In this document: one piece after another, positions 50,775 through 54,442 of the stretch | Layout: each line of letters opens with the position of its first letter | Position numbering within the stretch: the stretch's first letter is position 1 | Source of the DNA: a virus | Direction: 5' to 3' (one strand) | IMG/VR virus record: IMGVR_UViG_3300029305_006397 | Length of the DNA: 64,000 nt | Notes under the pieces: model-generated | The model's input: the letters and a program-made list of their open reading frames with translations, nothing else | Databases searched by the model: none | What the model was told of the DNA's origin: nothing | Made by a program: the position numbers and the translations under genes

Positions 50775-50849
50775 TGGCTGGGGTAGTTGGATTCGAACCA
50801 ACGATGTGGGAGTCAAAGTCCCATGCCTTAGCCGCTTGGCTATACCCCA
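50775..50849 (-). tRNA. tRNA-Gln(TTG), CCA encoded
   Basis: TGGGGTA ... TGGGA CTTTGAC TCCCA ... GTTGG TTCGAAT CCAAC TACCCCA G CCA. Confidence 0.9.
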
Positions 50850-51234
50850 ACAGCAGAGAAGTTTAAACCTTGTGTTTTTTTAATGCGGAGCTAACGGGAC
50901 ATTGTTTCAGCTCAGGCATTTCTTCGTAACACATTACTCCTACTTCCAAAGGATGCACTTTAAGACCGTATGTCTTGCTGCTGCGCAGAGGTAGCATTTC
51001 CTCCGCTTGAACACTTTCGCAGTTCCCGGCACTAGACACTTTCGTAGTCTCCAACGCCATCGTTTGTATGCTCAATTTACTTTTACCCAGTAGCGAACTG
51101 GAGAAGGCTGAACCACCTGGCTATAAATACAACAATGGTCTAAGCGTTAGGCAGACGGTCAAGAATCTGCCCCACGGAATCGTACCGTGCCACCTGCGGT
51201 AAATAAGACGCAGGATCGAACCTCGCTTTTAGGA
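50850..51234 (-). ncRNA. structured non-coding block A of the tRNA island
   Basis: 385 nt, GC-rich, with no SD-preceded ORF. Holds several stems, including two tandem GAAA-tetraloop hairpins with compensatory changes and a T-arm-like CACGG TACGATT CCGTG. Confidence 0.5.
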
Positions 51235-51576
51235 TTAATTTTGTATGGGTTTTGCAATTCTAAGTGCAATTGCAATACAGTAAATGCATGCCCATACATA
51301 ATCAATTATGCCTTTCAAGCTCTCAAAAAATGTAGGCTTACGTTCCATCATACGACTAAGCTCGATCAAACGAACACGACGTTCACGGTCGCGAGTTTCC
51401 TCTACAATATGATGGATATCTGTAAGGTCTCGAAGCTGACGATTAAATTTCAAATTAAGCTCTTCAATTTCATTTTGGTGCTCAATTCTGGATTTCTCCA
51501 TTTCATGAGCATGGATTTCGTTGAGACGCCTGGTTTCATTAATTACCAAATTGATATCGCTGAGAGTGAGATTCAT
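51235..51576 (-). CDS. hypothetical coiled-coil protein with C-terminal hydrophobic segment
   Basis: 113 aa, with SD AGGAGG 6 nt upstream. Confidence 0.6.
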   Translation of the reverse strand: MNLTLSDINLVINETRRLNEIHAHEMEKSRIEHQNEIEELNLKFNRQLRDLTDIHHIVEETRDRERRVRLIELSRMMERKPTFFESLKGIIDYVWACIYCIAIALRIAKPIQN

Positions 51577-51620
51577 AGAAGCCTCCTATTGTTGTTCGTC
51601 GATATCTTTGAAAATAAAGA

Positions 51621-51697
51621 TGGTACTCCGGGAGGGACTTGAACCCCCGACTACAGACTTAGAAGGACTGTGCTCTTTCCAACTGAGCTACCGGAGC
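51621..51697 (-). tRNA. tRNA-Arg(TCT), CCA encoded
   Basis: GCTCCGG TA GCTC..GAGC A CAGTC CTTCTAA GTCTG ... GGGGG TTCAAGT CCCTC CCGGAGT A CCA. One U-U mismatch in the anticodon stem. Confidence 0.85.
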
Positions 51698-51701
51698 ATA
51701 T

Positions 51702-51777
51702 TGGCAGGGAAGAAGAGATTCGAACTCTTATCTACATCGGTTTTGGAGACCGGAGTTTTGCATTAAACTACTTCCCT
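51702..51777 (-). tRNA. tRNA-Trp(CCA), CCA encoded
   Basis: AGGGAAG ... CCGGT CTCCAAA ACCGA ... AAGAG TTCGAAT CTCTT CTTCCCT G CCA. Confidence 0.85.
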
Positions 51778-52127
51778 ATTTATTATTATTGAGCCATAGG
51801 ACTTTCACCTATGGGAGCAAGGGTTAGGTTTCGTGTTTGCAACCACTTTCTAACGGTCTATTTCTAATTACTAATCTTGCCGACCAAGCATCTACAATTT
51901 TACCTTGCTTTTTCATATTTCGTACTTTTAAGAGATTTTCTTTTTGCTCGGCATCAACAGGACTTGAACCTGAACCCTCCGGCCAGCACTATCCAGCCAG
52001 CATGCTCTCCACCTACACCAGACACCTAATCCCTGCCACACAAACCATCGGCTGTACCTTCCGTTATAGGCTTGTTTGTACGTTGTGGCATACTCCATAT
52101 GGCTTTGTACTCACCACTCAAAAATAA
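51778..52127 (-). ncRNA. structured non-coding block B of the tRNA island
   Basis: 350 nt with no plausible CDS. Contains a T-arm-like TCAGG TTCAAGT CCTGT with no matching acceptor stem. Confidence 0.4.
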
Positions 52128-52391
52128 TCACGTTTGCTTTTTGCGAAGCGCCTGAACCTTGCGATTAAAAGCATGAATCTCGCTTTTTGTAAGGTTGGGC
52201 TTGATTTCTACGATTGAAAGATTCCATGAATAAAGGATGTCTTTGCTAGTGCCAGATAACTTGTTTGCATTGACTACAAAACGAGCCAATTGATCAAGCG
52301 TTTCAAACCTACGAACAAAAGCTCCGCGACAATGACGATTAAAAGATTTAAACTTCAATCCTGACCTTGCAAATGCAACTTCATAACGCAT
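52128..52391 (-). CDS. hypothetical basic protein
   Basis: 87 aa. Its leader ATGAAAGAGGTAC is identical to that of the 40-aa ORF at 52832..52954. Confidence 0.5.
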   Translation of the reverse strand: MRYEVAFARSGLKFKSFNRHCRGAFVRRFETLDQLARFVVNANKLSGTSKDILYSWNLSIVEIKPNLTKSEIHAFNRKVQALRKKQT

Positions 52392-52672
52392 AAAGTACCT
52401 CTTTCATAACCGGGTTACGATCTACACGGTAGACGGCCTGTCCCCTACCCCTTTAGCCTTGGACTGTTTGGCTTCCCTCGTTGGTTGATGGTCGCGTCCA
52501 ACTCTTTCAACCTCTTTCACTGCCCCTCGAACGTATTACCAGTGCCAACACCCACTTAGCGTTAAGCAGAATTACATCGACGTTGTTGGCTGCGCGAATG
52601 ACTGCGCGTACATAAGCTTCATTAAATGGCCGTCTGCTGCGGCATCAACTTAAGAAAAGAAAGAAAGGAGTT
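52392..52672 (-). ncRNA. structured non-coding block C of the tRNA island
   Basis: 281 nt, GC-rich. Shares the module TCTGCYTAACGCTWAG plus a covarying stem with block A. Confidence 0.45.
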
Positions 52673-52743
52673 TGCTTCGAGACGGAATCGAACCGCCGAC
52701 AAGAGCCATTCCAGCTTTTACTCTTCCCCTGAGTTACCGAAGC
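52673..52743 (-). tRNA. aberrant tRNA (GAA at anticodon position, loop UGGAAUG, no CCA)
   Basis: Good acceptor, D and T arms (GCTTCGG ... GGCGG TTCGATT CCGTC TCGAAGC A). However, position 33 is G, position 37 is U, and the anticodon stem has one mismatch. Confidence 0.5.
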
Positions 52744-52746
52744 ATG

Positions 52747-52822
52747 TGGAGCTGGCGAAGGGACTTGAACCCGCAACCTGCTGATTACAAATCAGCTGCT
52801 CTGCCAATTGAGCTACGCCAGC
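52747..52822 (-). tRNA. tRNA-Thr(TGT), CCA encoded
   Basis: GCTGGCG TA GCTC AATTGGCA GAGC A GCTGA TTTGTAA TCAGC ... CGCCAGC T CCA. The T stem has one mismatch. Confidence 0.8.
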
Positions 52823-52831
52823 CCGATATAT

Positions 52832-53131: not shown

Positions 53132-53180
53132 TGGGCGCAGCCAGGGATCGAACCCGGAAATCAAGACTTGGCTTCCTGCA
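53132..53180 (-). ncRNA. tRNA-like minihelix ending in CCA
   Basis: TGCAG (18 nt) CCGGG TTCGATC CCTGG CTGCG C CCA. A perfect T-arm stacks on a 5-bp acceptor-like stem, with no D or anticodon arm. Confidence 0.3.
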
Positions 53181-53316
53181 TTTTGCCTCTTAAATTACTG
53201 AGCCATAAAACTCCCGGTGGGTTCTCAGGCCCACATTGCCCGTTTACCGAAGCAGTGACGGCAGTCCTTCAGGTGATAAGCTTAAAGTCACCCTTGCGAA
53301 TTTGTACGACAGGAGT

Positions 53317-53402
53317 TGGTGAATACAATTGGATTCGAACCAATGCTCGACGACTGAGCCAAAGGCATGGGCCGTCCGTGCTAACCGCTACACCATATAT
53401 TC
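53317..53402 (-). ncRNA. 86-nt tRNA-like RNA with non-canonical anticodon region, CCA encoded
   Basis: Canonical acceptor (GAATATA/TGTATTC), D arm, T arm (ATTGG TTCGAAT CCAAT) and ACCA. The 33-nt central region has no convincing 5-bp stem with a 7-nt loop (best candidate is a weak GCC reading); instead a 6-bp stem GACGGC/GTCGTC forms. Confidence 0.5.
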
Positions 53403-53550
53403 ATGCATCCGACTAAGCAGTAGTCGGCACTGTGAAACACGCCGCGTGACACCTCGTCTGCGTCTGCGTCTGCGATTTCAATCAGTGATATCGCCACTGA
53501 TCCTCCCCTTGTCATCGGGAAAACTATCTTGACCAAGCGATATTTGGGAC

Positions 53551-53627
53551 TGGTGGGGGCCACAGGACTCGAACCTGTGACCGATCGGTTATGAGCCGAC
53601 TGCTCTGACCAACTGCGCTAGACCCCC
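53551..53627 (-). tRNA. tRNA-Met(CAT), or Ile2 if lysidinylated; CCA encoded
   Basis: GGGGGTC ... GTCGG CTCATAA CCGAT ... ACAGG TTCGAGT CCTGT GGCCCCC A CCA. Confidence 0.9.
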
Positions 53628-54006
53628 ATATGTAATGCCCCTGGTTGTATTAAATACATATGCATATGGATAGCTACGTCCCGCGAAGGAGTATTCGCGT
53701 GTATGCCTGACTTAAATCACGGACTCCAATTGTATTACTATGTGACGCATACTTTCGTTTTTATCCGCTATCTGGACGGGGCAGGTTAAGCGATAACCTA
53801 TGCCTTTCGACAACCCAGCCTCTAATAAGAGGCTGACGCTCATGGCCTAATGTCCTGTTTCAACTCGCCATGACGAGCAATCACCTGCAAGAATCGAACC
53901 TGCCTGGAAGTCAAGCTTCCTTTACTGCCGCCCAGAAGTGATTAAGATGGATTGTTTGACTTTAATTTGATAAGCGGAGGCCAAACAACCAAATTTCTCT
54001 CACGAT
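53628..54006 (-). ncRNA. structured non-coding block E of the tRNA island
   Basis: 379 nt with hairpins CGCGAA/TTCGCG, CAGCCTC/GAGGCTG and AGGTTA/TAACCT. Contains a degenerate tRNA-like element. Confidence 0.5.
53880..53942 (-). pseudogene. 63-nt degenerate tRNA-like element (Gln-like relic)
   Basis: 7-bp acceptor ATCACTT/AGGTGAT and T arm GCAGG TTCGATT CTTGC. The anticodon arm GGAAG CUUGA CUUCC has only a 5-nt loop, the D arm is truncated, and there is no CCA. Confidence 0.4.
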
Positions 54007-54092
54007 TGGTGCTGAGAAAGGGACTCGAACCCTCACGACCTCACAGCCAGCGGATTTTAAGTCCGCTGCGTCTGCCATTCCGCCATCTCAGC
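54007..54092 (-). tRNA. tRNA-Leu(TAA), type II, CCA encoded
   Basis: GCTGAGA TG GCGGAATGGCAGACGC A GCGGA CTTAAAA TCCGC, a long variable arm, then GAGGG TTCGAGT CCCTT TCTCAGC A CCA. Confidence 0.9.
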
Positions 54093-54096
54093 AGAT

Positions 54097-54119
54097 TGGT
54101 GGGCCTTAACGTCGGCCCA
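54097..54119 (-). ncRNA. hairpin ending in ACCA, 4 nt upstream of tRNA-Leu(TAA)
   Basis: T GGGCC GACGTTAA GGCCC A CCA. It mimics an acceptor end. Confidence 0.3.
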
Positions 54120-54170
54120 AACGACAGATGGGTTTATGCGCTGCGTAACCTCTTTTGCTCTTAACCGCGA

Positions 54171-54253
54171 TGGTGGGGATGGTGGGACTTGAACCCACAC
54201 GGTCTAGCCGTCGCATTTTGAGTGCGATGCGTCTGCCATTCCGCCACAACCCC
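54171..54253 (-). tRNA. tRNA-Leu(CAA), type II, CCA encoded
   Basis: GGGGTTG TG GCGGAATGGCAGACGC A TCGCA CTCAAAA TGCGA, a variable arm, then GTGGG TTCAAGT CCCAC CATCCCC A CCA. Confidence 0.85.
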
Positions 54254-54366
54254 GCCTAGTATGGCATGCCGTTCGGCTTACGACGGCCATAACGCCGGAT
54301 TTAGGAAATCACCCAAGAAAGGAGGTGTACATATGAAACCGTATCTCACCCGGAATCAGATGTAAG

Positions 54367-54442
54367 TGGTGAAAGTGGCGGGATTCGAACCCGCGACTCA
54401 CAGATTAAAAGTCTGTTACTCTACCGACTGAGTTACACTTCC
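54367..54442 (-). tRNA. tRNA-Lys(TTT), CCA encoded; first gene of the island
   Basis: GGAAGTG TA ACTC AGTCGGTA GAGT A ACAGA CTTTTAA TCTGT GAGTC GCGGG TTCGAAT CCCGC CACTTTC A CCA. Confidence 0.9.

Follow-up and report, generated by a model that had tools for sequence, protein, structure and literature searches.

Small stable RNAs that are not tRNAs, about 120-140 nt long and partly tRNA-like, are known from phage T4 as RNAs C and D, which are co-transcribed with the phage tRNAs and freed by tRNA-processing enzymes. Genes for ROOL and GOLLD RNAs occur in phages and prophages, in many cases close to tRNA islands, and GOLLD can hold tRNAs in its linker (PMC12286853, PMC5737381). In tRNA arrays of gut phages, theta ribozymes, which are hepatitis delta virus (HDV)-like, abut tRNAs and have been proposed to process tRNA 3′ trailers (PMC10879173). 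Here, the tRNA island at positions 50775-54442 of the viral record IMGVR_UViG_3300029305_006397 from IMG/VR was analysed within a stretch of 64,000 nt, in the following called the window. A preliminary description had tentatively read five GC-rich blocks between its tRNA genes as ROOL- or GOLLD-like RNAs or as a new class of structured phage RNA co-transcribed with tRNAs. The island is probably a phage tRNA operon with a single promoter, which carries a pistol self-cleaving ribozyme, an extended RAGATH-36 RNA and lineage-restricted modules that are either RNAs or decayed tRNA genes.

The five blocks are b1 (50850-51234), b2 (51778-52127), b3 (52392-52672), b4 (53062-53550) and b5 (53628-54006). 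A scan of the whole window at the Rfam gathering thresholds gave two non-tRNA matches, pistol and RAGATH-36, both located in the island and on the tRNA strand. Permissive scans were performed at E≤5 over positions 50000-55000 and at E≤10 over two sub-windows. Neither at the gathering thresholds nor at E≤5-10 was ROOL or GOLLD matched, and the permissive scans gave no HDV-like, hammerhead, twister or group I intron match. A transfer-messenger RNA was not reported by ARAGORN at its default threshold, and the best Rfam scores for this family, 7.9-21 bits, fell short of the gathering score of 47.

Block b1 is filled by the longer of the two RNAs. RAGATH-36 (RF03104) belongs to the candidate motifs of the RAGATH series of the Breaker laboratory; a literature search, with the supplement of the discovery paper outside its scope, found no paper naming it. 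The model was matched over all its positions (1-128/128) with 73.2 bits (gathering score 70, E 8e-14), the narrow margin being due to a 56-nt insert in stem 3, and the four hairpins of the core and its conserved linkers UAACGCUUAG and GGCGUUGG were matched end to end. The conserved RNA is about three times longer than the 128-position Rfam model, which spans about 43% of it: instead of a motif of ~160 nt, RAGATH-36 is an RNA of about 376 nt with several domains that occupies the whole gap between orf113 and tRNA-Gln. Its first part starts with the motif GCGAGGUUCGAU (51226-51215), followed by a covarying hairpin (51214-51193) and the T-loop-like hairpin UGG-CACGG-UACGAUU-CCGUG (51192-51172). 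The second part is the Rfam core, which reaches to 51031. Like the 5′ motif and hairpin, the 3′ domain of about 180 nt is conserved, covaries and is located outside the Rfam model. It consists of three helices, namely PA (51006-51000 with 50991-50985, loop AAAUGCUA), PB (50983-50978 with 50856-50851) and PC (50947-50942 with 50862-50857), and contains the conserved strand AAGUGCAUCCUU (50960-50949).

These extensions were recognised by comparison of about 60 phage contigs and contigs of metagenome-assembled genomes (MAGs). With the pattern of the core, 71 IMG/VR loci were retrieved, mostly sparse tRNA arrays on the same strand; a same-strand tRNA was located within 1.5 kb in 29 of the 56 distinct instances and an opposite-strand tRNA in none of the 56. 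The 3′ extension was present in 38 loci (blastn and nhmmer). The anchors GCGAGGTTCGA, AACGCTYA, GAAATGCTR and GTGCATCCTT are found together both in IMG/VR loci and on independent MAG contigs, and all anchors are found in the window and in the members L016 and L060, which reach the gathering score. Pattern matches on MAG contigs were mostly due to chance, and nine real members remained after filtering; the MAG contigs on which members with the same anchors are located are assigned to Ruminococcus, Roseburia, Oscillospiraceae, Clostridiales/Eubacteriales and Prevotella. In nearly all members, GCGAGGUUCGAU is present and precedes a hairpin of 11-55 nt. In at least 28 of 52 distinct sequences the downstream layout begins with CAAG, PA with the loop AAAUGCUR, the 5′ strand of PB and a variable insert, and continues with AAGUGCAUCCUU, the 5′ strand of PC, NGGAG, a variable hairpin, GGUNAAA and the 3′ strand of PC, directly followed by that of PB. 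The 3′ end of the RNA abuts a tRNA in the window and in L025, L035, L039, L053 and L056, and a Shine-Dalgarno (SD) sequence plus ATG in L015, L016 and L044.

Covariation was assessed separately for the two extensions. Sequence anchors served to define helix PA and the 5′ hairpin, and the latter has on average 6.1 closing pairs compared to 2.2 in shuffles (35 distinct sequences). For the 3′ domain, an automatic helix finder was too permissive for PB and PC, and a curated core alignment of 14 sequences was used instead, in which the inserts were excised, PA was set by its anchor and the registers of PB and PC were chosen by hand. In this alignment 97.3% of the cells pair, compared to 68% in shuffles and 49-60% when the partners are slid, and 14 of 16 pairs change on both sides; the observed values were attained in 0 of 500 shuffles. 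The association with same-strand tRNA arrays and the presence of two T-loop-like motifs suggest a role of RAGATH-36 tied to tRNA processing or binding.

Further observations concern this RNA family. The segment of hairpin 4 (GAC-UACGAAAG-GUC type) is tandemly duplicated in the window (51050-51034 and 51025-51009, minus strand) and present in one copy in L083 and L153; the Rfam alignment took the first copy, and the CAAG junction consistent with the family follows the second. A RAGATH-36-like sub-class with a very long second hairpin (GACGGAAAAU...) was found in L012, L017, L020, L022, L023, L037, L043, L046, L059, L062, L069 and L082, where a 'tRNA-???' of 87-89 nt with an irregular anticodon loop is located about 410-610 nt downstream. 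RAGATH-4 and RAGATH-16 share contigs with RAGATH-36, at a distance of about 2 kb (L016 13942-14249 and L060 223-605), and several RNAs of the RAGATH series thus cluster in phages of this type.

The pistol ribozyme in b5 was matched over its entire model (RF02679, positions 1-68/68) with 61.6 bits against a gathering score of 34.5. Like other pistols, it occurs in phage DNA, and the hallmarks of the class are present: the P1 hairpin, P2, P3, a 6-bp pseudoknot between UCAUGG in the P1 loop and CCAUGA in the internal loop, the core AUUAGGC..GAGCGUC, and a G-U cleavage dinucleotide at 53814/53813 in the P2-P3 linker. The difference lies in its surroundings, as it is located inside a tRNA operon and fused to a tRNA-like element, TLS-1. 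This element of 65 nt has a 7-bp acceptor-like stem (AAUCACU/GGUGAUU) and a T-arm (GCAGG-UUCGAUU-CUUGC), lacks a canonical D arm and anticodon arm, and gave no Rfam tRNA match at E≤10; the length of its 'anticodon' loop differs between the window and the sister phages L083 and L093. No such fusion was present in any other pistol-pattern match drawn from IMG/VR, in which the real-looking pistols are intergenic leaders just upstream of open reading frames (ORFs), sometimes several per contig. A 15-nt complementarity between 53736-53722, downstream of the ribozyme, and the atypical tRNA in b4 was dismissed, since by our own estimate about 0.3 such matches are expected by chance.

The arrangement resembles that of the theta ribozymes in so far as a self-cleaving ribozyme is located inside the tRNA array of a gut phage and would plausibly aid precursor processing. 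Theta ribozymes cut at their own 5′ end and thereby trim the 3′ trailer of the tRNA, whereas pistol is another class that cuts near its own 3′ end and stays joined to the upstream tRNA-like element. No match to the HDV family in Rfam was obtained in the island, and a permissive descriptor, which approximates the published one, gave none at tRNA 3′ ends; its other matches were scattered and attributed to chance. The features of the locus are compiled in Table 1.

Table 1. Features of the tRNA island and its upstream region, listed in the direction of transcription (window coordinates)
Feature	Position	Strand	Evidence and remarks
RtcB RNA ligase gene	54730..55905	-	391-aa ORF directly upstream of the island; Pfam PF01139 recorded for identical protein
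Sigma-70-type promoter	54670..54698	-	TTGACA, 17 nt, TG-n-TAGTAT; just past the RtcB gene
AT-rich leader	54443..54664	-	Three direct repeats of ~30 nt; diverged in sister phages
tRNA-Lys(UUU)	54367..54442	-	ARAGORN and Rfam, 74.5 bits
Lys-Leu spacer	54254..54366	-	3′ half (~54305-54254) kept in L083 and L092 (pairwise alignment)
tRNA-Leu(CAA)	54171..54253	-	ARAGORN and Rfam
tRNA-Leu(UAA)	54007..54092	-	ARAGORN and Rfam
TLS-1, tRNA-like element	53879..53943	-	ARAGORN at 80% threshold only; 0 nt 5′ of pistol
Pistol self-cleaving ribozyme	53809..53878	-	Rfam RF02679; predicted cleavage between G53814 and U53813
Post-pistol segment	53628..53808	-	Extends to tRNA-Met; would bear 5′-OH after cleavage
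tRNA-Met(CAU)	53551..53627	-	ARAGORN and Rfam
b4b	53403..53550	-	Deleted with the atypical tRNA in L083 and L093; minimum free energy (MFE) z-score -2.1
Atypical tRNA	53317..53402	-	Rfam tRNA 46.9 bits; ARAGORN 'tRNA-???'
b4a, 5′ domain	53205..53316	-	Closing stem 53315-53310 with 53217-53211 around three hairpins
TLS-2, Trp(CCA)-like, G33 for U33	53133..53204	-	ARAGORN only
b4a, 3′ hairpins	53062..53132	-	Lead to tRNA-Gly; 97% identical in L083 vs 78% for tRNA-Gly
tRNA-Gly(UCC)	52985..53061	-	ARAGORN and Rfam
orf40	52832..52954	-	SD GAAAGAGG; also gene-called in L083 and L093
tRNA-Thr(UGU)	52747..52822	-	ARAGORN and Rfam
Phe(GAA)-like tRNA, G33	52672..52744	-	Rfam tRNA 39.3 bits and ARAGORN
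b3	52392..52671	-	280-nt leader of orf87 with variable-length hairpin
orf87	52128..52391	-	SD; one homologue cluster, 93% identity
b2	51778..52127	-	Holds TLS-3 and 3′ hairpin element 51847-51779
TLS-3	51949..52026	-	Rfam tRNA 19.2 bits, under threshold of 29
tRNA-Trp(CCA)	51702..51777	-	ARAGORN and Rfam
tRNA-Arg(UCU)	51621..51697	-	ARAGORN and Rfam
orf113	51235..51576	-	SD AGGAGG; 57% nucleotide identity to L083
Extended RAGATH-36 RNA, ~376 nt	50851..51226	-	Rfam core 51192-51031 with conserved 5′ and 3′ extensions
tRNA-Gln(UUG)	50775..50849	-	ARAGORN and Rfam; starts 2 nt past the last RAGATH-36 helix

Most probably, the island is the tRNA operon of a large phage that belongs to gut anaerobes. 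It is located just past an RtcB gene and comprises eleven tRNA genes together with three genes for small proteins and several RNA modules other than tRNAs. The promoter at 54698-54670 is the best match of the region (10/12, extended -10) and is 100% identical in L083, whereas the leader behind it is only 49% identical. On the minus strand no terminator-like site was found between the island modules, and the sole terminator-like match falls within orf113. The earlier proposal was correct in its general idea, as structured RNAs other than tRNAs are present on the tRNA strand, behind one strong promoter and with no terminator in between; their identification with ROOL or GOLLD was wrong. A single precursor would start at this promoter. 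Its tRNAs, and the tRNA-like elements as 'punctuation', would be the cleavage sites of the host enzymes RNase P and RNase Z. Pistol is predicted to cut itself between G53814 and U53813, leaving a 2′,3′-cyclic phosphate on the upstream product (TLS-1 and most of the ribozyme) and a 5′-OH on the downstream product (186 nt to tRNA-Met). Together these cuts would free mature tRNAs, small mRNAs and stable structured RNAs. RtcB joins 2′,3′-cyclic-phosphate and 5′-OH ends. A more far-reaching model, in which RAGATH-36 represents an unrecognised class of large phage RNAs of tRNA operons (~300-450 nt) with a 3′ end made by RNase P and two T-loop-like motifs that act on tRNAs or on the processing machinery, and in which RtcB joins or circularises the pistol products, is speculative and rather unlikely; if true, the island would be a self-contained RNA-processing cassette and not a plain tRNA array.

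Sister phages were used for the analysis of the remaining modules. Exact copies of the island occur in several metagenome assemblies, the contigs of which end inside the island, and diverged relatives are few: L083 and L084 with a 90% identical RtcB and the full island, L093 with a 95% identical RtcB and the island covered to 52777, and a lineage with an 80% identical RtcB that is divided between L092 and L153, both ending inside the island. The alignment with L083 is a mosaic. Besides the promoter, the leader and orf113, it comprises b4a with 92-99% identity, the genes for tRNA-Lys, tRNA-Leu(UAA), tRNA-Met and tRNA-Gly with 67-80%, TLS-1, pistol and the post-pistol segment with 91-97%, and the run from tRNA-Thr to tRNA-Arg with 96-100%, orf87 (95.8%) included. 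Within this mosaic the post-pistol segment is 95.6% identical compared to 67.5% for the adjacent tRNA-Met. The region 53550-53314, which comprises b4b and the atypical tRNA, is missing in L083 and L093, two spacers are missing from sister phages as well, and L083 has insertions of 77 nt in the post-pistol segment and of 17 nt in b2. One module junction is located at a tRNA T-arm, where window position 53565 is joined to 53341 in L093. Since modules were lost and inserted between sister phages, the island is modular. In the case of the 77-nt insert at 53739 (L083 4794-4870), the flanks are near-identical, and the post-pistol module tolerates large inserts at this site.

Candidate ORFs in the blocks lack an SD sequence, as described previously, and this together with frameshifting indels in the sister phages shows that b2, b3, b4 and the post-pistol segment, which are restricted to three or four near-identical phage lineages, are non-coding. 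The indels that break frames in L083 are 17 nt in b2, net +11 nt in b3 and 77 nt in the post-pistol segment. The closing stem of the b4a 5′ domain is CUCCUG/CGGGAG in the window, UCCCCG/CGGGGA in L083 and CCCCCG/CGGGGG in L093. Among the eight variable pairs that RNAalifold, which tends to favour undisrupted and compensatory outcomes, predicted in b4a, three were compensatory, five one-sided and none disrupted, and in none of four alignments were variable pairs disrupted. By eye, an inner b4a hairpin changes from CCGU..ACGG to CCAU..AUGG in two columns that RNAalifold left unpaired. In b3, the tip of the hairpin is replaced in L083 and its base changes from GGUUG..CAACC to GAUUG..CAAUC. These thin but consistent hints from sequence comparison point to folding of b4a and b3. 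The 5′ polypyrimidine tract of b3 (52670-52652) can pair with the SD sequence of orf87 (52405-52398), enclosing the whole 280-nt block, a pairing that could sequester this SD. The 3′-terminal 70 nt of b2 are found again ahead of an unrelated ORF (nhmmer match to positions 2-70 of L154, E 1.7e-12). This was the only match when b2, b3, b4a, b4b, the post-pistol segment, TLS-1 and two spacers were searched by nhmmer against 1.27 Mb of phage loci; scans of IMG/VR with hairpin patterns of b2 and b4a gave zero matches, and b2, b3, b4a, b4b and the post-pistol segment matched no Rfam family, the E≤5-10 scans included.

All nine tRNA genes of the preliminary description were confirmed on the minus strand, with ARAGORN and the Rfam tRNA model in agreement, as were three short coding sequences, each preceded by an SD sequence; the tRNA tally was incomplete, as the blocks hold two further matches to the tRNA model and three tRNA-like elements. 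For orf87 and orf113 no relatives were found in IMG/VR, and protein searches yielded just one to three clusters. The atypical tRNA has a 7-bp acceptor stem, a good T-arm, an encoded CCA and an 18-nt anticodon loop and is missing in L083 and L093. TLS-2 gave no Rfam tRNA match at E≤10, and a G-U pair of its T-stem is G-C in L083. Canonical tRNAs were required to have an Rfam tRNA score of at least 29 bits and a 7-nt anticodon loop with U33, and TLS-1, TLS-2 and TLS-3 were rejected as such. The identity of TLS-2 to the island tRNAs is 0.54-0.68, and the range for TLS-2 and TLS-3 together (0.54-0.69) is similar to that of the island tRNAs among themselves (mean 0.63). This tRNA-level similarity and the G33 of TLS-2 and of the Phe-like gene make an origin from decayed tRNAs plausible, irrespective of any present role of the elements as processing signals. 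The T-loop motif GGTTCRANNC is found on the minus strand within b1, b2, b4 and b5.

With respect to base composition, the GC content of the blocks is 0.470 (b1), 0.426 (b2), 0.491 (b3), 0.507 (b4) and 0.449 (b5) against a background of 0.390 ± 0.031 in 350-nt windows. The claimed GC richness was confirmed, with b1, b3 and b4 above at least 99.7% of the background windows, except for b2, which falls within the background range (13% of these windows are as high). The claim of hairpin density was only weakly supported, with 21 perfect hairpins of at least 5 bp compared to 10.3 ± 3.5 in dinucleotide shuffles, a count reached in about 1% of the shuffles and with the surplus derived from b4 and b5 only. 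GNRA loops, which had likewise been claimed, cap none of the perfect stems of at least 5 bp in the blocks. The MFE z-scores were -1.4 (b1), -1.8 (b2), +1.0 (b3), 0.0 (b4a), -2.1 (b4b) and -2.8 (b5) and are thus unremarkable and uninformative.

Different explanations for the blocks were weighed. Large ornate RNAs of the ROOL or GOLLD type, in which a 945-nt unit would enclose tRNA-Met, would fit the habitat of these families, as they are often located near tRNA islands of phages and prophages (PMC12286853, PMC5737381), and only this habitat of phage or prophage non-coding RNAs near tRNA islands is shared. Given that neither family was matched even at E≤5-10, this explanation is extremely improbable. 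A single RNA of the length of ROOL (~580 nt) or GOLLD (>800 nt) was rejected because the longest continuous non-tRNA block has 385 nt, and this block is the RAGATH-36 RNA with its ~376 nt and a different architecture. The supposed 945-nt unit is modular: it contains an additional tRNA, a tRNA-like element and pistol, the region 53550-53314 is missing in L083 and L093, and tRNA-Met itself is divergent in L083. It is also very unlikely that the blocks are long regulatory 5′ untranslated regions or unannotated small protein genes belonging to the short ORFs and downstream genes. Such a role is suggested by the position of b3 directly upstream of orf87, with a polypyrimidine tract that can pair with the orf87 SD, and by a 65-aa ORF annotated in b1 by one gene caller (in L088). 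This ORF is contradicted by 1-nt indels of L083 in the b1 3′ domain, and b1 is explained by covarying RNA structure; the other candidate ORFs lack SD sequences and are broken by the L083 indels listed above, and most blocks precede tRNAs and not ORFs.

The strongest competing explanation restricts the functional RNAs to pistol and RAGATH-36 and regards the other blocks as debris, i.e., decayed tRNAs and recombination scars whose GC content and hairpins derive from tRNA ancestry. The T-loop motifs in four blocks, the tRNA-level identity of TLS-2 and TLS-3, G33 in TLS-2 and in the Phe-like gene and the sub-threshold tRNA scores are in line with it, as are the gain and loss of whole modules between sister phages, once at a tRNA T-arm, the ordinary MFE z-scores and the lack of homologues in 1.27 Mb of related arrays and in the IMG/VR pattern scans. 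Against debris, b4a and the TLS-1/pistol/post-pistol region are 91-99% identical between lineages, next to flanking tRNAs with 67-78% identity; furthermore, all variable pairs of b4a still pair, three of them in a compensatory manner, b3 carries a variable-length hairpin on a covarying base, and the 3′ element of b2 recurs in L154. On this evidence debris is a possible but unlikely account. According to the preferred interpretation of a single-promoter operon with pistol, the extended RAGATH-36 RNA and further modules, each of the gaps b2, b3, b4 and post-pistol is located around or beside a tRNA-shaped remnant and would represent either a young RNA specific to this lineage or tRNA genes in decay.

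Several points weigh against this interpretation. Co-transcription, the cuts by RNase P and RNase Z at tRNA-like elements and the activity of pistol are all deduced from sequence features. The RAGATH-36 score of the window exceeds the gathering score by just 3 bits, and the pairing statistics of the 3′ domain are inflated because the PB and PC registers were hand-chosen after removal of the inserts. For b2, b3, b4 and the post-pistol segment only two to four near-identical sequences were available, the MFE z-scores of b3 and b4a are about 0 to +1, and the near-identity of b2 and b3 (96-100%) is similar to that of the neighbouring orf87 and hence reflects recent shared ancestry and not constraint. 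Finally, RtcB relatives at 62-67% identity in IMG/VR have no comparable island adjoining RtcB, and the link between RtcB and the island may therefore be incidental.

Annotation of a phage tRNA array usually stops at the tRNAs and treats the rest as junk; here this 'junk' includes a ribozyme as well as a conserved RNA of large size. Of the RAGATH-36 RNA, which is found in the orientation of the tRNAs on dozens of contigs from gut phages, the Rfam model captures only about 40%, and a corrected model would improve annotation and provide a target for structural and functional work, as with ROOL and GOLLD. As to the new RNA class considered previously, the longer RAGATH-36 and the unmatched b2, b3, b4 and post-pistol segments leave room for it, whereas pistol and RAGATH-36 as such were already catalogued. 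The fusion of pistol to a tRNA-like element beside RtcB extends the theta-ribozyme finding on tRNA operons of gut phages (PMC10879173).

Regarding the genome context, the phage of the window is large, with genes for a DNA polymerase, a DnaB-like helicase, exonuclease V and an anaerobic ribonucleotide reductase, and a protein identical to its RtcB is known from contigs as long as 146 kb. Close phages in INPHARED gave matches at the tRNA level only, and a metagenome scan with the promoter pattern gave a single unrelated match. The direct repeats of the leader (54439-54637, minus strand) share the core ATTAWGTGCAAA and could be protein-binding sites; in L092, the leader of which is otherwise diverged, a similar core is present as well. 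The Lys-Leu spacer matched no family, and the 3′ half of this spacer, CCUAAAUCCGGCGUUAUGGCCGUCGUAAGCCGAACGGCAUGCCAUACUAG, is kept in L083 and in L092 of the 80%-RtcB lineage, while the 5′ half is not. Elsewhere in the window, a 521-aa ORF (17660-19225, plus strand) is located antisense to the NrdD gene (17045-19282, minus strand) and is almost certainly a shadow ORF.

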